Below, piece by piece: positions 5,669-59,055 of a stretch of 64,000 bases of DNA. Positions within the stretch are counted from its first letter, which is position 1. The number at the start of each line of letters is the position of its first letter. The DNA is from a phage. The position numbers and the translations under genes were made by a program. The stretch is taken from the NCBI GenBank assembly GCA_021469345.1, contig GCA_021469345.1_3049.1; one strand, 5' to 3'. The notes beneath the pieces are model-generated. The model saw nothing but the letters and a program-made list of their open reading frames with translations. It made no database searches and was not told the DNA's origin.

Positions 5669-5751
5669 TTTTAATAAAGCTTCTGTTCATAAGGATAAGA
5701 AGAAAGCGTTTAAAGAATCTAATCGCAAACAGAAACATAAGGGGAAGGTCT

Positions 5752-6030
5752 ATGATTATTGATTCTCAGTCCGTGGTTCAATACACAATCAAAATTGATA
5801 TTCTAGAAAAGCTATATAAGTTTTTACCAAACCTATACCATTCAATTGTTAATGAATTAGTTGAAGAACTACATCTTGAGAATAATGATTTCTTGATTGG
5901 AACTTATAAAGACCTCTCAAAAGCAGGATATTTTTACGTAATTCCAGCTCCAGGAAAAAGTATTGATGATGCATTAAAAACTATAATGATTTATGTCCAT
6001 GATTACGAAATTGAAGATTATTTCGAATGA
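5752..6030 (+). CDS. arn: Arn anti-restriction protein (McrBC inhibitor), 92 aa
   Basis: Length, acidic C-terminus and position upstream of asiA match T4 Arn. Confidence 0.6.
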   Translation: MIIDSQSVVQYTIKIDILEKLYKFLPNLYHSIVNELVEELHLENNDFLIGTYKDLSKAGYFYVIPAPGKSIDDALKTIMIYVHDYEIEDYFE

Positions 6031-6179
6031 GTCATAATCTTGAAAAAGTAATCGAGCATAATGTAGCTCAGGAACGTAAGTCGTTCAAAGAATTCGTAGA
6101 AAAAATTTTTGAAGAAAATAACACAGACCAGTTTACAAATCAAGCGTCTGATGATATTATAATAAAGTCAACTAATTGA
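6027..6179 (+). CDS. small ORF (50 aa), asiA.1 position
   Basis: ATGA overlap with arn; manually translated MSHNLEKVIEHNVAQERKSF... Confidence 0.4.
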   Translation: MSHNLEKVIEHNVAQERKSFKEFVEKIFEENNTDQFTNQASDDIIIKSTN

Positions 6180-6191
6180 GTGGTATAGTTA

Positions 6192-6464
6192 ATGAATAAA
6201 AATATTGATACAGTTCGTGAAATTATTACTGTTGCGTCTATTTTGATTAAATTTTCCAGAGAAGATATTGTTGAAAATCGTGCTAATTTTATTGCATTTC
6301 TGAATGAGATTGGAGTAACGCATGAAGGTAGAAAATTAAATCAGAATTCATTCCGTAAAATTGTTTCTGAATTAACTCAAGAAGATAAGAAAACCCTCAT
6401 CGACGAATTCAACGAGGGTTTTGAGGGTGTATATCGATATCTAGAGATGTATACGAACAAATAA
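6192..6464 (+). CDS. asiA: AsiA anti-sigma-70 factor
   Basis: 90 aa; MNKNIDTVREIITVASILIKFSRED... matches T4 AsiA. Confidence 0.9.
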   Translation: MNKNIDTVREIITVASILIKFSREDIVENRANFIAFLNEIGVTHEGRKLNQNSFRKIVSELTQEDKKTLIDEFNEGFEGVYRYLEMYTNK

Positions 6465-7121
6465 TTATTTAGCCCTTCCTAATATTCTGGCCGCCTGAGC
6501 ACATATTGATTCAAGGCGGTCATTACTTATATGATCATTTCTATACCAGTACATGGTTATTGTTCCAGCATAGATATTATCCAAATTGAAATATGGACAA
6601 CTGTACATGTAATTTATTTCGGGAGTAGGCTTTTTAGTTGGTAAAAAAGCAAATTTTGAGTTGGAATAATAATGACGTCCATTTAAATGAACTGTATATT
6701 CATCCATAGTTTTATCAACAGGATATCCTCCAAGTGATTTTTCACTTATTGTTGAAGGTAATTTTCCTTCGTATGCTATAATATCAACAAAATAGTTTAA
6801 GTTTTTAGGGCGGAAAGAATACACCGCACTAAAGTCTGCCTCAGATGATATATGAACTATCTGGAGTTGTTCCAGGGCGACAGATTCAAAGCGTGCAGTT
6901 CTTTCCTTTTCAATAATTTCACTGTATGTTTCATACTTTGATTGCTTATAGTACTCAAAGAAACTATCTCCCCTATACCAAACAATCGCCATTATAAACA
7001 AAAGAATTACGACAGCTACCCGGGAAGCAAGAACTTTCCCGGTAGCGTTATCTTTGAACAAGCGATCTAGAACACCAAATAGAATATCAGAGGGCGAAAA
7101 TGATATTCTAGGTGCTGCCAT
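6465..7121 (-). CDS. t: holin T
   Basis: 218 aa; N-terminal TM segment and large C-terminal domain; length equals T4 T. Confidence 0.9.
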   Translation of the reverse strand: MAAPRISFSPSDILFGVLDRLFKDNATGKVLASRVAVVILLFIMAIVWYRGDSFFEYYKQSKYETYSEIIEKERTARFESVALEQLQIVHISSEADFSAVYSFRPKNLNYFVDIIAYEGKLPSTISEKSLGGYPVDKTMDEYTVHLNGRHYYSNSKFAFLPTKKPTPEINYMYSCPYFNLDNIYAGTITMYWYRNDHISNDRLESICAQAARILGRAK

Positions 7122-7152: not shown

Positions 7153-7959
7153 TTATACTCTTGAACCGTATATTGTACCAACTTTAGTCCAAGTTGGAGC
7201 ATTACCAGTAACAGCTTTACCCGCTGCACCAGCACCACTGGTATTATAGTTTAATGTACGGACAGCAGCGCCGCCAGCAGAACCAACATTACCACCTGCA
7301 CCACTCATGTTATTACCGTCAACGGTTACTTTACCACCTGCGGCGGTTAACGATGCATTACCACCATTACCTCGACCACCTCGACCACCAGTACCGAAAG
7401 GACGTCCGCCTCCACCACCAGCAACATTACCTAATGTGAAGTTATAATCTACGGACCAACCACCGCCGCCACCGCCACCGCCAGCAATTGCACCATTATT
7501 CGTAATACGTAAGCGTGTACCAATACCATTATTAATCGCTGTACCACCAGCAGTTGCTCGAACTAAAGCATCTCCAGAACCTCCACTAGATCCAGATCCA
7601 TTACCTCCTCGGCCATAAACAGTAACGCCAGAGTTAATAATCAATGTCACATATTCATTAGTTAATGAACTAGGAAAATCTAAGCACGGAATAGTTGAAG
7701 AACTAGAAACAATATCTCCTGTTATTGTTACAACAGCAGGAGCTGTTCAAATTGATTTAAGCCAATTAATTAAAGTATCTTTATTATATGAATGATTTGA
7801 GCCAATTGAATAAGCTTTTTCAACTGACTTTCCTGCCATTGAACTCATCCAACCGGGAACTGAAACACGAACTGCTCTCATCGCAGCATCCATCCAACGT
7901 TGTCCAGTTTCATTCACGGCAGATTCGCCAATCCAGCCAGGAACACCTACAATTGCCAT
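7153..7959 (-). CDS. 38: gp38 receptor-binding adhesin (T2-type, glycine-rich), interrupted by an in-frame TGA at 7747..7749
   Basis: N-terminal MAIVGVPGWIGESAVNETGQRW... (7959..7750) and glycine-rich C-terminal part (7650..7153) are in the same frame, separated by one TGA and 33 sense codons. Confidence 0.7.
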
Positions 7960-28051: not shown

Positions 28052-29644
28052 ATGTGGTTAACTAAGAATAACGCTATGTTTGATAATATATACAAAAACG
28101 GAAAGTTTCTTCCATTTGGAGAAGAAAAACTTAAATCTAGACTAACAGAAGAAGATAAAGCTCTTCTAACTGATGGAATAGATTTTAAGCTCAATGTGTT
28201 TCAAATTATGGAAGGCATTGACATTAACGATCTAAAATGTGCAGTTTGTGGAAATTTCATTTCTCTGAAAACAGCAAAGAAACGTGTATTTCCAGCAACA
28301 TGTAGTAAATCCTGCTCAGGGATATTTTTCGCGGATAAGAGAATTCAAAGCCGTGATACAAATTTTGGCGGAAAAGAAAAATATAAAAAATATTTGTCTG
28401 AACTTCAACACAAAAATTCTTTAGAAAAATATGGAACAACTCATCAAAAAATTTCAAGAAATAAAAATAGAAAAACTTTAATTGAACGATATGGGGTAAC
28501 GCATAATTCACAATTAGAAAGTGTGAAAGAAGCGAGAAAAGTTATAGAAAACGGTAAATCAGTTGATATTCTGCATTCTAAAAAATCTCGCGAAAAATCT
28601 AAGAAGACTAAATTAAATTGGACTGAAGAATATAAGGCATCGTTATATTCATCTATAGGAAAATCTATTAAAAATAACGGTCATATTAATCATGATATAC
28701 TAGATAAAATCAATTACAAAATTTCTATAGAAGAACTACAACAATTAGCAAATTGTTCTCGGATGACGGCTTATAGAGCTCTTTCATCCAAAGGACTAAT
28801 TGACGTTCATTATACTCAAAGTTCTATAGAGCAATTCATTTTAGATCTAGGATTTGATTGCGTAGAAACTAGAAAAATTATTCCTCCGTATGAATTAGAT
28901 ATTTACATTCCTGAGAAAAAATTGGCTATAGAATACGATGGAATTTATTGGCATTCTAGCGGGTCAAAGGAAACAGATAAAATTAAAGAAACTTATCATT
29001 TGATGAAGACAGAGATGTGTGAAGCACAAGGAATTCAATTACTTCACATCTTCGAAAATGAATGGATTGATGATACAAAAAGAGAGATCTGGAAATCCAT
29101 TATAAAGCATAAATTAGGATTATCAGAAAGAATACCAGCCCGAAAATGCAAAGCGCGTTTTGTTAATAAGGATGAGGCAAAAGAATTTATTAATAAGAAT
29201 CATCTTCAAGGATTTTGCTCGGGAGCTCATACGTATAAAGGACTTTATTACAATAATGAGTTAGTTCAAATTATTTCTATCGGTAAATCTAGATATAGCA
29301 CAGGTGATGAACTTTTAAGGATGTGTTCAAAATTGGGGGTTTGTGTTGTAGGAGGAGCCTCAAAATTATTAAAAGGAATTAATTGTCTATCTTATGGCAA
29401 TCGAAGATGGTGCAGTACATTATCAAATGTTTATGACTCTGTCATGGAATTTAGTCATATCTCTGAGCCATGTTATTGGTACGTCGATAAAGGAGAGGTA
29501 TTTCACCGCTCAAGCTATATGAAACATAAGCTTAAAAACAAGCTTAAAAATTATGATGATACAATAACTGAAGTAGAAAATTGTTATGCAAATGGTCTTA
29601 GAAGAATCTGGGACTGTGGAAATTTAGTTTACAGGACAAAATAA
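28052..29644 (+). CDS. 530-aa putative freestanding homing-endonuclease-like protein (zinc ribbon + Vsr/DUF559-like nuclease motif)
   Basis: CAVCGNF...CSKSC ribbon, repeated YG(T/V)THxxQ motifs, and YELDIYIPEKKLAIEYDGIYWH; sits where T4 carries mobE. Confidence 0.5.
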   Translation: MWLTKNNAMFDNIYKNGKFLPFGEEKLKSRLTEEDKALLTDGIDFKLNVFQIMEGIDINDLKCAVCGNFISLKTAKKRVFPATCSKSCSGIFFADKRIQSRDTNFGGKEKYKKYLSELQHKNSLEKYGTTHQKISRNKNRKTLIERYGVTHNSQLESVKEARKVIENGKSVDILHSKKSREKSKKTKLNWTEEYKASLYSSIGKSIKNNGHINHDILDKINYKISIEELQQLANCSRMTAYRALSSKGLIDVHYTQSSIEQFILDLGFDCVETRKIIPPYELDIYIPEKKLAIEYDGIYWHSSGSKETDKIKETYHLMKTEMCEAQGIQLLHIFENEWIDDTKREIWKSIIKHKLGLSERIPARKCKARFVNKDEAKEFINKNHLQGFCSGAHTYKGLYYNNELVQIISIGKSRYSTGDELLRMCSKLGVCVVGGASKLLKGINCLSYGNRRWCSTLSNVYDSVMEFSHISEPCYWYVDKGEVFHRSSYMKHKLKNKLKNYDDTITEVENCYANGLRRIWDCGNLVYRTK

Positions 29645-30319
29645 TGAGTACAGTTTTTAATACTAAACAGGTTGATGTTTTAACAGAACCCATGTTTTTT
29701 GGGTCTGGTCTTGGAATTGCGCGTTATGATATTCAACGACATAGGGTATTTGAAGAACTTATTGAACGTCAGCTCTCGTTTTTCTGGCGTCCTGAAGAAG
29801 TAAACTTGATGATGGATGCTACTCAATTTAATAAGCTTCCTCAGTATCAACAAAATATTTTTACTAATAATCTGAAGTATCAATCATTACTTGATAGTAT
29901 TCAAGGACGTGCGCCGTCTGCTGTACTTATGCCATTGCTTTCAGACCCAAGCCTTGATACATGGGTTGCTACGTGGACTTTTAGTGAAACTATTCACAGC
30001 CGTTCATATACACATATCATGCGAAATCTTTATACTGATCCATCGAAGGTATTTGATGAGATTGTATTAGATGAAGCTATTATGAAACGTGCTGAATCCA
30101 TTGGACGTTATTATGATGATGTTCTGATTAAAACCCGTGAATGGGAAAATGCTAAAGAATTTGTAGAACTAGCTAAAGAATCTCCTGATGCTGATTTTCG
30201 TTTAAACCGAGCTATTAAACAAGAAGCCGAAGCTAAACGTGCTTTAATGAAGTCTCTTTATCTCTGTTTGCACGTTATTAATGCCTTAGAAGCTATTCGT
30301 TTTTATGTATCTTTTGCGT
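29644..30319 (+). CDS. nrdB: ribonucleotide reductase small subunit, exon 1 (splice site inferred)
   Basis: Ends ...EAIRFYVSFA plus T; the in-frame stop begins the intron. Confidence 0.8.
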
Positions 30320-30402
30320 AAAATGCGCCTTTAAACGGTAACGTTTATCGAAAACTCCTTTAATTGCTGGAAAGTCCTTTATAGGAAAACTAGCAGCCAA
30401 GG

Positions 30403-30437
30403 TTTTGCTTGCACCTTTAATTAGTATAATATAAATA
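30403..30437 (+). promoter_or_regulatory. intron-internal promoters for I-TevIII: MotA-box-like TTTGCTTG + TATAAT, then late TATAAATA (30430-30437)
   Basis: TGCTT 14 nt upstream of TATAAT; exact TATAAATA overlapping it. Confidence 0.5.
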
Positions 30438-30464
30438 TGATTATACTTTTAAGAGGATGCACAA

Positions 30465-31274
30465 TTGAACTATAGAAAAATTTGGATAGATGCTAACGGA
30501 CCTATACCTAAAGATTCTGATGGAAGAACATACGAAATCCATCATAAAGACGGTAACCGTGAAAATAATGATTTAGATAATTTGATGTGCCTTTCTATAC
30601 AGGAACATTATGATATACATTTAGCTCAAAAAGATTACCAGGCTTGTCATGCTATAAAGCTTAGAATGAAATATTCTCCTGAAGAAATTTCTGAATTAGC
30701 TTCTAAAGCCGCAAAATCTAGAGAAATCCAGATTTTTAATATCCCTGAAGTACGAGCTAAAAACATTGCCTCTATTAAATCTAAGATAGAAAATGGTACA
30801 TTTCATCTTTTAGACGGTGAAATACAGCGTAAATCTAATTTAAATAGAGTTGCATTAGGTATACATAATTTTCAACAAGCTGAGCATATTGCAAAAGTTA
30901 AAGAACGCAATATTGCAGCTATAAAAGAAGGTACTCATGTATTTTGCGGTGGTAAAATGCAGTCAGAAACTCAATCAAAACGGGTAAATGACGGTTCACA
31001 TCATTTCTTGTCAGAAGACCATAAGAAAAGAACATCAGCAAAAACATTAGAAATGGTTAAGAACGGGACCCATCCTGCACAAAAAGAAATCACATGTGAT
31101 TTCTGCGGTCACATTGGTAAAGGTCCTGGATTTTATCTAAAACATAATGACAGATGTAAATTAAATCCAAATAGAATTCAATTGAATTGTCCATATTGTG
31201 ATAAGAAAGATTTATCACCATCAACATATAAACGATGGCACGGCGACAATTGCAAAGCAAGGTTCAACGACTAG
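30465..31274 (+). CDS. I-TevIII-like H-N-H homing endonuclease, full length (269 aa)
   Basis: H-N-H-like YEIHHKDGNRENNDLDNLMCL and C-terminal CDFCGH...CPYCDKK zinc motifs; apparent TTG start after SD AAGAGGA. Confidence 0.75.
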   Translation: MNYRKIWIDANGPIPKDSDGRTYEIHHKDGNRENNDLDNLMCLSIQEHYDIHLAQKDYQACHAIKLRMKYSPEEISELASKAAKSREIQIFNIPEVRAKNIASIKSKIENGTFHLLDGEIQRKSNLNRVALGIHNFQQAEHIAKVKERNIAAIKEGTHVFCGGKMQSETQSKRVNDGSHHFLSEDHKKRTSAKTLEMVKNGTHPAQKEITCDFCGHIGKGPGFYLKHNDRCKLNPNRIQLNCPYCDKKDLSPSTYKRWHGDNCKARFND

Positions 31275-31410
31275 TCTTCGGACGTAGGGTCAAGCGACTC
31301 GAAATGGGGAGAATCCCTCTGGGATTGTGATATAGTCTGGTCTGCATAGTAATATGTAGCAGTTCATAAGAGAACGGGTTGAGAATTAGCGAGCTCAATC
31401 GAACATAACG

Positions 31411-31913
31411 GTACCTTTAACTTCCACAAGAATATGGAAATCATGGAAGGTAATGCCAAGATTATGAAGTTCATTGCACGTGATGAGCAGCTTCACCTTA
31501 AAGGCACCCAATATATTATTCGTCAGCTTCAATCCGGTACTGATGGTGATGAATGGGTTAAAATTGCTCAAGAGTGTGAACAAGAAGCAGTTGATATTTT
31601 CATGGAAGTTAACCGTCAAGAAAAAGATTGGGCAGTTCATTTATTTAAAGATGGTGATGTTCCTGGATTAAATACAAATAGCATGTGGAGCTTTATTGAT
31701 TACTTAACTGTATCTCGTATGAAACAGTGCGGTCTTCCATGCCCAATTACCGATGCTCCGGTTAAACATCCATATCCTTGGATTCGTGAATATCTTAATT
31801 CTGATAATGTTCAATCTGCGCCACAAGAAGTAGAACTGTCATCTTACCTTGTTGCACAGATTGATAATGATGTTGATGATAAAGTTATGATGAGTTTTAA
31901 AAAATATTTTTAA
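31411..31913 (+). CDS. nrdB: ribonucleotide reductase small subunit, exon 2
   Basis: ...MEIMEGNAKIMKFIARDEQLHLKGTQYII...; joined product about 392 aa. Confidence 0.8.
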
Positions 31914-46382: not shown

Positions 46383-46739
46383 CATGGAACTTATTACATA
46401 ATTATTTGACGGCGCTTCGGCGCCGGTTGTTAACTTAAATCCTAAGCATAAAATACCACAAATTTTTGCTATTCAAGCCGGCGAAGAAAGCGTGCTTCCT
46501 GGATTTAGATTTTGTACATACACCTCTGGCGGTGATACAGATAAAACGTTAAACCAGGCGACAAAATGATGCATATCGTAATGATAGGTGTTAATGAGAA
46601 ACTATCATTAGTTAAGCTTAAAAACTTGGGTGGAAATCCAATTGGTGTCATTAATGCTGTTTTGATACTGCTCTTCAAACAATGAAACAGTATAAAATCG
46701 ACGCATGCCTATTACGCGTACTAAAAAGTTCAAAATGTG
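46383..46739 (+). pseudogene. decayed partial duplicate of the alt 5' region
   Basis: ATGGAACTTATTACATAA (MELIT-stop), then LFDGASAPVVNLNPKHKIPQIF...FCTYTSGGDT..., frameshifts, ...QYKIDACLLRVLKS; parallels the Alt N-terminus. Confidence 0.65.
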
Positions 46740-46793
46740 GTTTACAAGTCCCTCGTGTTGTGTTATAGTAGTCTTACTGACATAACATGAGGA
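46740..46793 (+). promoter_or_regulatory. T4-type early promoter, copy B of the 54-bp exact repeat
   Basis: Identical to 33532-33585. Confidence 0.6.
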
Positions 46794-55392: not shown

Positions 55393-55635
55393 TTAAAAGC
55401 TTTCTTCTACTTCATCGTCTGAATCTTCTAATTCAGCTCTTTTTCCTGCCAAAGCATCTCTGACTGAGATGTCATCAGTATCTTTTAATTCAGTTTCTTT
55501 GACTCTTTTCTTATAATAAGCTTCAAGTTCTTCTAAACCTTCTAATGTTTGACAAGAGGCAATTTTACCCATAAATTCATCAATAGAAGCTTCATAAAGA
55601 AATTGTTTAAATTTTAGTAACATCTTTTTCTCCAA
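55393..55635 (-). CDS. small acidic protein (80 aa), uvsW.1 position
   Basis: ORF track; directly downstream of uvsW. Confidence 0.55.
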   Translation of the reverse strand: MEKKMLLKFKQFLYEASIDEFMGKIASCQTLEGLEELEAYYKKRVKETELKDTDDISVRDALAGKRAELEDSDDEVEESF

Positions 55636-55648
55636 AGGGCCGAAGCCC

Positions 55649-57160
55649 TTATAAATTAACTGTTTTCATTACGTAATTAAATTTTTCATCTGCGTAGCGC
55701 TGAATACGATCAATGCCGTGTTTTAAAAGATAGTTCAAATGAACATATTTCTTTTTCGTATTAGCAGATTTTGGTTTAACGCCACAATCATCTATGAGGT
55801 CCCAGACTGTTGCGATTGTTTTAGAACCATGCTTACGTAATACACGACCGATTGTTTGTAATACAATGATTTTTGATTTAACGCCGTGCGCTAAAACAAC
55901 ATGATGCAGATTTTTAACTGAAATACCAGTAGAAAATACACCATAACTCGCTACTATAATTATTCCTTTACCATTTTCAGCTAAGGTTTTCATTACGTTG
56001 CGTGTTTCAGTATCAACTTCCCCTGATACGTAATAAACTTTATCGTATTCATTTTTAATTAAATCGAAAATAGCTTTACCATGCGATACATGTTTAAACA
56101 TGACAAAAGCGTTTTCATCTTTTTGCGCAAGCTTAATAGCTAATTTAGCGATCCATTTATTTCTTTTACTAAGCCCAGTAATAATTTTTATTTCTTCTTG
56201 ATAAGTTTTTCCCTTTAATTTAGTAGTGAACTCATCGGGATAGCGAAGAAAAATACTATTAATTTTTAGCTCAGTTACTTGTCCATCTTCCATTAATTTA
56301 GAAGTCGTTACTGGCTTAAATATTTCACCAAACATTCCAACATACTGCATGATATTGGCTTTGCCATCACGTAATGAACCAGACAAACCGAATTTGAACA
56401 TGCAGTTATTTAAACCTGATATGATAGATGAAATACTTTTTCCTGTAGCAAGATGGCATTCATCATTCATCATCATTCCAAATTGGGAGAACCATTCTTT
56501 CGGTTGTTTTACTACAGTTTGCCATGTACCAACAACGACTGGTGCATCATTTTTATATTTATCATCTTTTGATGCTCCGCCACCAATTTTCTTTATCATT
56601 GCATGGCTGAATAAACGATAGTCGACGAAGTCATCAGCCATCTGAGTTGTCAGAGCAGTTGTTGGAACAATGATAAGAATTTTACCTTCATAATTTTCCA
56701 AATAATATCGCGCAAGCAAAGCTTGGATTAACGATTTACCAGCGGATGTTGGAAGATTAAGAATTCTACGACGATTAACTAATCCTTCGAACACTGCATC
56801 TTTTTGATACCAGTGCGGTTCAATTCTTTTATTTCCTGAATAGATTTCTAATTTAGAAAGCCATTCATCAAAATCTTTTCTTGATAATTCTTCTTTTTCG
56901 TTAATTTGTGGGTCAATCCAGGCTTTATAGCCAAAGTTATCACAGAACTTTTTAATTTGCCCGACTAAGCCGAATGGAAGAAGACGATTATAATCTAAAA
57001 GACGGATTCGTCCATCCCAGTGGCCATATCTGTATTTCGGATTAAAACGATACCCATCAGCTTCAAAGCTAAAGAAATCACGGAGTTCATGAAATGTACT
57101 TTCTTCACAGTCAATTCTCACGTGACTAAAATCATAAAAATGTACTTTAATGTCAGTCAT
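55649..57160 (-). CDS. uvsW: UvsW DNA/RNA helicase
   Basis: 503 aa; Walker A GKS and DECH helicase motifs. Confidence 0.9.
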   Translation of the reverse strand: MTDIKVHFYDFSHVRIDCEESTFHELRDFFSFEADGYRFNPKYRYGHWDGRIRLLDYNRLLPFGLVGQIKKFCDNFGYKAWIDPQINEKEELSRKDFDEWLSKLEIYSGNKRIEPHWYQKDAVFEGLVNRRRILNLPTSAGKSLIQALLARYYLENYEGKILIIVPTTALTTQMADDFVDYRLFSHAMIKKIGGGASKDDKYKNDAPVVVGTWQTVVKQPKEWFSQFGMMMNDECHLATGKSISSIISGLNNCMFKFGLSGSLRDGKANIMQYVGMFGEIFKPVTTSKLMEDGQVTELKINSIFLRYPDEFTTKLKGKTYQEEIKIITGLSKRNKWIAKLAIKLAQKDENAFVMFKHVSHGKAIFDLIKNEYDKVYYVSGEVDTETRNVMKTLAENGKGIIIVASYGVFSTGISVKNLHHVVLAHGVKSKIIVLQTIGRVLRKHGSKTIATVWDLIDDCGVKPKSANTKKKYVHLNYLLKHGIDRIQRYADEKFNYVMKTVNL

Positions 57161-57210: not shown

Positions 57211-57891
57211 ATGATAGATAAAGATTATATTGCAGAGCTGAAGGCTCTTGATGATAACAAAGAAGCTAAAGCTAAATTAGCTGAATACGCTGAACAGTTT
57301 GGTATAAAGGTCAAAAAGAATAAATCTTTTGATAATATCGTTGCTGATATTGAAGAAGCCCTCCAGAAGCTCGCTAGTGAACCTATGCCAGAGACTGATG
57401 GGTTATCTATTAAAGACTTAATTAATGCTGCTGATGCTGCAGAGGGGTTAAAATATGACGATGAAGAAGTCAATCCAGAAGCAGCACTTCTGATTGATTC
57501 TCCGGTTAAATCTGACATTAAAATTGAAGTAGTAGAAACGGATAAAATTCCTGAAAATACCGATGTTTTGATTGAAGATACTCCTTTTGTTGAAGAAAAA
57601 TTTGAACAGGCTGTAGCTGAGATTATCGAATCTGAAAAGCCGTCTGTATTTACTCTTCCGGAAAACTTTAGCCCAAATCTTCAGCTGATTGGAAAAAATC
57701 CAGGATTCTGCACTGTTCCTTGGTGGATTTATCAATGGATAGCTGAAACTCCGGATTGGAAATCTCACCCAACTAGTTTTGAACACGCATCGGCACACCA
57801 AACTTTATTTAGCTTAATTTATTACATTAACCGCGACGGATCAGTTTTAATTCGTGAAACACGCAATTCTTCTTTCGTAACATTAAAATAA
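57211..57891 (+). CDS. inh: acidic protein (226 aa), positional equivalent of T4 Inh
   Basis: Position upstream of hoc; assignment from synteny only. Confidence 0.5.
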   Translation: MIDKDYIAELKALDDNKEAKAKLAEYAEQFGIKVKKNKSFDNIVADIEEALQKLASEPMPETDGLSIKDLINAADAAEGLKYDDEEVNPEAALLIDSPVKSDIKIEVVETDKIPENTDVLIEDTPFVEEKFEQAVAEIIESEKPSVFTLPENFSPNLQLIGKNPGFCTVPWWIYQWIAETPDWKSHPTSFEHASAHQTLFSLIYYINRDGSVLIRETRNSSFVTLK

Positions 57892-57900
57892 GGATAACTT

Positions 57901-59021
57901 ATGGCTTTTACAGTTGATATAACTCCTAAAACACCAACAGGGGTTATTGATGAAACCAAGCAGTTTACTGCTACACCCAGTGGTGAAACTGGAGGTGGAA
58001 CTATTACCTATGCTTGGAGCGTAGATAATGCTCCCCAAGAAGGATCAGCAGCAACTTTTGATTATGTATTAAAAGGACCTGCCGGTCAAAAGACCATTAA
58101 AGTAGTTGCAACAAATACACTTTCTGAAGGAGGTCCGGAAACGGCTGAAGCGACAACAACTATCACAGTTCAAAACAAGACACAAACGACTACCTTAGCC
58201 GTAACTCCTGATAGTCCTGCGGCTGGAGTGATTGGAACAGCTGTTGAATTTACTGCTGCTTTAGCTTCGCAGCCATCAGGTGCATCTGCTACGTATCAGT
58301 GGTATGTAGATGATTCACAAGTTGGTGGAGAAACTAACTCTACATTTAGCTATACTCCAACTACAAGTGGAGTAAAAAGAATTAAATGCGTAGCCCAAGT
58401 AACCGCGGCTGATTATGATGCAAAGGAAGTTACTTCTAATGAAGTATCATTAACGGTTAATAAGAAGACAATGAATCCACAGGTTACATTGACTCCTCCT
58501 TCTATTAACGTTCAGCAAGATGCTTCGGCTACATTTACCGCTAATGTTACTGATGCTCGCAAATTACTTATTCATGGAAGAAAGATTCTTCTCCTGTAGA
58601 AGGGTCAACTAACGTATATACTGTCGATACCTCATCTGTTGGAAGTCAAACTATTGAAGTGACTGCCGTCGTTACTGCAGATGACTATGATAGCAAAACT
58701 ATTACAGCAGAAGGTCAAGTTCAAGTAACCGATAAAGTTGCTCCGGAACCAGAAGGTGAACTACCTTATGTTCATCCTCTTCCACATCGTACTTCAGCTT
58801 ACATCTGGTGCGGTTGGTGGGTTATGGATGAAATCCAAAAAATGACCGAAGAAGGTAAAGATTGGAAAACTGACGATCCAGATAGTAAGTACTACTTGCA
58901 TCGTTACACTCTCCAGAAGATGATGAAAGAATATCCAGAAGTTGATGTTCAAGAATCGCGTAATGGATACATCATTCATAAAACTGCTTTAGAAACTGGT
59001 ATCATCTATACCTATCCATAA
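57901..59021 (+). pseudogene. hoc: hoc (outer capsid Ig-like protein), disrupted by a frameshift near 58558-58563
   Basis: Track ORFs 57901..58599 and 58659..59021 are in different frames; together they encode a Hoc-like protein. Confidence 0.7.
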
Positions 59022-59025
59022 TCAT

Positions 59026-59055
59026 AAGGGGCTTCGGCCCCTTTCTTCATTTTGA
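59026..59055 (+). terminator. rho-independent terminator after hoc (AGGGGC-TTCG-GCCCCT + T-rich)
   Basis: Perfect stem with tetraloop and T-rich tail. Confidence 0.6.

Follow-up and report, generated by a model that had tools for sequence, protein, structure and literature searches.

A 10-bp deletion splits the hoc gene of a T4-like phage genome and probably makes it a loss-of-function allele

Is a hoc gene that is read in two different frames a genuine null allele of a wild phage, an intact gene misrepresented in its sequence, or a gene whose two parts are still put to use? This question is raised by a T4-like (Tequatrovirus) genome, part of which makes up the 64,000-nt stretch of DNA analysed here (the window). 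The 19 kb around hoc are 97.6% identical to vB_EcoM_FN and F1, and about 97% identical to T4. Hoc is composed of three N-terminal Ig-like domains and a conserved C-terminal domain, through which it attaches to gp23 hexamers at their centre, and 155 copies of it are found on the capsid (PMC10385173). It is dispensable (PMC3012670).

Identity of the split gene

The initial annotation had described a Hoc-like product divided between two ORFs in different frames (57901..58599 and 58659..59021). Both are present as described (Table 1), but the second, a 120-aa ORF that begins at GTG, is a mechanical call, and the homologous frame is already open from 58554. The gene order around the locus, from the ORF list and from comparison with relatives, is uvsW (- strand), inh, hoc, 24.3, 24.2 and rnlB, the same as in T4. 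The position of hoc between inh and 24.3/24.2/rnlB is common to T4, Ozark and Bas41, and in all three hoc starts 10 nt past the end of inh, a layout that matches the window. Downstream, the intrinsic terminator is intact, and phage OE5505 has a terminator annotated at the equivalent place 3' of hoc.

At the DNA level, the gene is 91.6% identical to T4 hoc. In alignments to solved structures, the upstream product matched T4 Hoc residues 1-219 (E 3e-128), and the downstream frame matched residues 225-376 (PDB 5vf3 and 8t1x, E 4e-97), so that the two frames jointly account for the whole length of the protein. Judged from these alignments, the Hoc homology of both frames is far beyond chance, and by homology and position together the split gene is identified as hoc.

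The 232-aa upstream ORF consists of 219 native Hoc codons followed by 13 out-of-frame codons and a TAG stop. The native part comprises Ig domains 1 and 2 and roughly 27 residues from the start of Ig domain 3; it runs to ...TANVTDA and then reads RKLLIHGRKILLL before the stop. From 58563, the -1 frame reads ITYSWKKDSSPVEG... and continues through to the usual Hoc C-terminus (...GIIYTYP, then the stop codon); what remains of Ig domain 3 and the complete C-terminal capsid-binding domain (residues 225-376) are thus encoded there. PKD/Ig matches were found in the upstream product, and the third Ig (I-set) domain of T4 Hoc is assigned by Pfam to residues 193-283. As the frame breaks at residue 219/220, within this range, Ig domain 3 is cut after roughly 27 residues, and the three Ig-like domains are not joined to the capsid-binding domain in a single polypeptide. 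Since the capsid-binding domain lies in the other frame, the locus is a hoc pseudogene or null allele rather than a functional hoc.

Table 1. Features of the window, and lesions in other interrupted hoc genes
Feature	Position	Strand	Description
gp38, T2-type long-tail-fibre adhesin	7153..7959	-	Pfam PF05268 (GP38), E 7e-38
Hef ORF	28052..29644	+	530 aa, between nrdA and nrdB
nrdB	29644..31913	+	two pieces, 29644-30321 and 31434-31913
HNH endonuclease ORF	30465-31274		269 aa, between the nrdB pieces
alt.-1/alt.-2 region	46384..46765	+	remnants
uvsW	55396..57160	-	503-aa ORF and separate small ORF uvsW.1
inh	57211-57891		directly upstream of hoc
hoc ribosome-binding site TAAGGA	57889..57894	+	6 nt before ATG; overlaps inh stop codon; read from sequence
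Broken hoc frame	57901..58599	+	ATG, 232 aa, frame 1; ORF list and translation
hoc remainder, -1 frame	58554..59021	+	155 codons open; native stop 59019-59021; translation and frame analysis
Deletion junction	58557..58558	+	10 bp, CCAGAAGAAG, missing (T4 hoc nt 658-667); DNA alignments
Out-of-frame tail RKLLIHGRKILLL and premature TAG (58597-58599)	58558..58599	+	translation and codon listing
Mechanical 120-aa ORF	58659..59021	+	GTG, first start codon in -1 frame; frame 3; ORF list
Intrinsic terminator after hoc	59026..59053	+	AAGGGGC-TTCG-GCCCCTT, then T-run; intact; terminator scan
Bas41 FriedrichZschokke hoc	T4 hoc nt 827		1-nt deletion
vB_EcoM_FN hoc (5696-6827 of compared FN locus)	T4 hoc nt 473		1-nt insertion
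ECCR664 hoc	T4 hoc nt 474 and 947		1-nt deletion at each
PM105 and PM108 hoc	near codon 162-164		stops
JK42 hoc	T4 hoc nt 1004		2-nt insertion
OE5505 hoc	codon 226		CAA to TAA

Elsewhere in the window, the ORF between nrdA and nrdB is Hef, a free-standing homing endonuclease of the HNH type that was first described in phage U5 (99.9% DNA identity; PHROG 3339, E 5e-151), which stands in place of T4 mobE/nrdB.1. The nrdB gene itself is in two pieces, with another HNH endonuclease ORF between them. From its sequence, this layout is that of a putative nrdB group I intron carrying a full-length I-TevIII-like gene, compared to the truncated one in T4. The T4 homing-endonuclease genes segD and segE are absent from the window.

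The deletion and its authenticity

The alignment with intact hoc that the initial annotation had proposed gave one clean gap. Compared with the intact hoc of Ozark and T4, and with Bas41 hoc, the 1121-nt locus has a single gap of exactly 10 nt, which falls between 58557 and 58558, in agreement with the frame switch originally placed near 58558-58563. The missing bases, CCAGAAGAAG, code for part of the loop APEEAQ, and their loss leaves the downstream frame at -1 (= +2) relative to the upstream frame. Re-inserting them in silico restored one uninterrupted 376-aa ORF, 364/376 residues of which are identical to Ozark Hoc and 348/376 to T4 Hoc. The frame is broken where this had been claimed, but the lesion is a 10-bp deletion and not a slip of 1-2 nt.

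All 606 phage records that cover an 80-nt junction probe align with it over 90 nt, i.e. they keep the 10 bases. Exact searches with junction 24-35-mers gave no match in IMG/VR, JGI metagenomes or GTDB genomes; BLAST found no match to the window hoc gene among complete E. coli genomes; and an intact sister allele of >95% identity over the full length was not found. The exact allele is private to one assembly. Judged by its lesion, the gene has the features of a null allele, with the TAG at 58597 lying upstream of the capsid-binding domain and a loss of 10 bp that 606 relatives retain.

How the deletion arose can be considered from its flanks. Its placement is ambiguous by one C, and this single nucleotide is the only flanking microhomology. 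Minihomology-mediated deletions in T4 use repeats of 3-13 nt (PMC8262927), and this mechanism was rejected as a poor fit, the flanking identity being only 1 nt. Deletions of 1 and 13 bp without minihomology have also been described (PMC8262927).

Could the true phage instead have an intact 376-aa hoc, with the gap arising from assembly or consensus calling? The allele is seen in a single assembly and nowhere else, and the window holds a second odd lesion, an in-frame TGA in gp38, both of which would fit an artefact. Consensus errors, however, are typically 1-nt indels in homopolymers, whereas hoc has lost 10 nt at a site that is non-repetitive and outside homopolymers. Moreover, frameshifts and internal stops were sought in about 90 genes, and hoc was the only bona fide gene found broken. 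The same protein sequences are also listed under both NCBI and Logan, where Logan support is a source label only, and Logan may have assembled the same reads. We consider an artefact unlikely. The sequencing indel put forward as the alternative in the initial annotation is kept as a rival, but a 10-bp lesion in non-repetitive sequence makes such an error much less likely than had been allowed.

The test for broken genes used tblastn with 88 T4 proteins against the 64 kb, looking for frame splits and internal stops, and flagged only hoc, the alt.-1/alt.-2 remnants and the known uvsW/uvsW.1 split. The 93 matching ORFs of the closest relative, FN, gave the same picture; gp38 is without a close counterpart in either query set, and its stop was found by direct inspection. 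The alt.-1/alt.-2 region holds remnants of an old alt duplication in T4 and is further decayed in the window, where a stop codon interrupts alt.-1 at codon 6 and alt.-2 switches to another frame near 46664. The two uvsW ORFs correspond to a 587-aa fusion annotated in the T4 reference; the T4 annotation flags sequence discrepancies in this region, and FN is likewise annotated with two helicase ORFs.

The exact 232-aa product is HBN1578453.1 and the exact 120-aa product is HBN1578454.1, the latter annotated as a hypothetical protein. Both come from a 167,936-bp contig, as long as an entire T4-like genome, of an NCBI third-party "Escherichia coli" assembly (sources NCBI and Logan). The assembly of a complete lytic T4-like genome from the reads of a bacterial isolate suggests a carrier culture or contamination.

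The TGA in gp38 lies at 7747-7749, codon 71 (...NWLKSI, stop, TAPAVV...). In the three nearest relatives (FJ1, G8 and IsaacDaniel) this codon is GGA (Gly), so the TGA in the window is a single G to T opal mutation. In T2-type phages gp38 is needed for adsorption, and a lesion in gp38 is therefore less expected than one in hoc. Within the window, we found no suppressor tRNA able to read this TGA, and no tRNA gene. The stop may reflect unusual selection on a genome recovered from a bacterial isolate's reads, or it may be a rare sequence error. Likewise, the presence of the gp38 opal codon and the hoc lesion in one window could mean that the genome is under relaxed selection, or that its sequence is imperfect.

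Expression of the broken gene and the expected virion

Given that both frames are open, could Hoc still be made? A -1 shift or a hop within the overlap 58554-58599 would yield a near-full-length Hoc without about 4 loop residues, and the capsid would still be decorated. The downstream frame is exactly -1 and open from 58554, giving a 45-nt overlap with the upstream frame. This overlap holds AGA-AAG-A, where tRNA-Lys could re-pair on AAA; slippage at A-AAG occurs in E. coli, and a 9-bp hairpin begins at 58584. However, this hairpin abuts the candidate site AGA-AAG instead of lying 5-9 nt downstream of it, the folding energy of the region is no better than that of shuffled sequences (z = 0.00), and an X XXY YYZ heptamer is absent from the overlap (58540-58599 searched). 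The candidate site and the hairpin, moreover, are in sequence common to intact hoc genes (with single-base differences), where they are read in frame, which argues that nothing here has evolved for recoding. The two-frame arrangement occurs in no relative, all of which read the stretch in one frame. Thus, neither of the hallmarks of programmed -1 frameshifting, a slippery heptamer and a spaced structure with a conserved arrangement, is seen at this locus, and we regard recoding as extremely improbable. A bypass of the gene-60 type, from GGA at 58576 (frame 0) to GGA at 58641 (-1 frame), was also rejected: there is no stop after the take-off codon, and a hop of this kind would remove 21 Ig-domain residues.

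The two frames might instead form a split gene with two useful products, a free two-Ig N-terminal protein and a capsid-binding stub that plugs the hexamer centres, initiated at GTG 58659 or ATG 58824. Both ORFs are open, the second contains the entire capsid-binding domain, and capsid binding resides in the C-terminal domain (PMC10385173). A recent lesion, however, accounts for the open second frame. The GTG lies 60 nt beyond the upstream stop codon and its sole Shine-Dalgarno-like motif is GGAAG, 13 nt upstream, from which we expect initiation at this codon to be probably poor and a separately expressed stub to be unlikely. A start at ATG 58824 would drop the first part of the capsid-binding domain. 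In addition, no other genome shares the arrangement, and where hoc is broken elsewhere the breaks fall at unrelated positions, which gives no hint that a split is being selected. Overall, we judge a functional split gene to be very unlikely.

We conclude that, on the evidence of its sequence, this wild T4-like phage (Tequatrovirus) probably carries a genuine loss-of-function allele of hoc, a pseudogene at an early stage. The 10 bp are missing from the loop that joins strands 2 and 3 of Ig domain 3; their loss shifts the frame and leads to the premature TAG 13 codons on, with the flanking start and terminator signals intact. Ribosomes starting at ATG 57901 would be expected to produce a fragment of 232 residues, made up of the first two Ig domains and a stub of the third. 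Such a fragment would be without the C-terminal anchor to the gp23 hexamer centre, and none of the about 155 Hoc sites would be filled; the virions are thus predicted to be Hoc-less. Frame analysis of the hoc remainder (58554..59021) found no secondary lesions. That 155 codons are still open in the -1 frame, free of any further lesion, points to a recent event, and the C-terminal part, which has no credible start site of its own, is probably still open only for this reason.

The initial annotation had called the gene hoc, broken by a frameshift, and had also held that a null allele is viable. Homology and position bear out the identity of the gene, and its frame is broken at the place given; the dispensability of Hoc (PMC3012670) and the hoc-null phages T2 (natural) and HAP1 (spontaneous) agree with viability. 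The phage would be expected to be viable, as T4 hoc mutants and T2 are, although this expectation is drawn from the dispensability of Hoc and the gp38 opal codon leaves room for doubt. Published work on T4 hoc mutants suggests that the bare capsid surface would alter antigenicity, mammalian clearance and clustering or dispersion. Such effects on antigenicity, clearance from animals and clustering of virions would matter for a phage used for therapy, display or detection. For annotation, the consequence is that pipelines label the two hoc pieces as separate proteins and not as a pseudogene.

Comparison with other broken hoc alleles

Other Tequatrovirus and Mosigvirus isolates, like the window, have an interrupted hoc, with differing lesions (Table 1). 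These lesions are mostly of 1-2 nt, and several are at an A-run; the 10-bp deletion of the window, in contrast, is not at a repeat and occurs in none of them. The OE5505 stop sits in the same Ig-domain-3 loop as the window deletion. In FN, ECCR664, PM105 and PM108, the break in hoc coincides with the A-run at nt 474-478 or lies close to it, and this run may be a hot spot either for mutation or for sequencing errors.

In an evenly spaced sample of BLAST hits to Tequatrovirus records, hoc was broken in 5 of 39 full-length records (about 13%). Among IMG/VR loci, 1-2 of 21 were broken. Several of the lesions lie at an A-run and may be sequencing errors. This small survey points to a broken hoc in about one in ten of the T4-like genomes sequenced, which qualifies the universality of Hoc in the family.

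Is hoc inactivation, then, a recurrent and selected event and not a random accident? In some settings, for example under antibody pressure in animals or during propagation in culture, selection could favour loss of the capsid's most immunogenic, surface-exposed protein. The window has fresh lesions in two virion-surface genes (the 10-bp deletion in hoc, and Gly71 to opal in gp38), and the genome comes from within the assembly of an 'E. coli' isolate; it might show a phage at a moment when it persists with its host under altered selection. We consider this reading unlikely.

The kind of allele described here, a hoc null as in T2 and relatives, is already known; from the comparisons above, this particular allele is new and private. 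T2 is reported to be without Hoc (PMC8396182), and its hoc is annotated as three fragments, with an 11-nt deletion at nt 166, a 1-nt deletion at nt 479 and a 2-nt deletion at nt 992. As in the window, the T2 gene lies in the same place after inh and is frame-broken upstream of the capsid-binding domain. It is, however, an old, decayed pseudogene with three lesions, whereas in the window the 10-bp deletion, a private one, is the only damage to hoc. In T4 HAP1, a spontaneous C496T change has created an ochre stop in hoc at 44% of the protein length; the phage is viable and has a capsid without Hoc (PMC10580926). The window allele resembles HAP1 and the laboratory hoc amber and deletion mutants in that a single lesion truncates Hoc before its C-terminal domain (PMC10580926; PMC3012670). 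It differs from HAP1, a point nonsense mutation at 44% in T4 itself, in being a 10-bp frameshift at 58% of the length in a wild phage.
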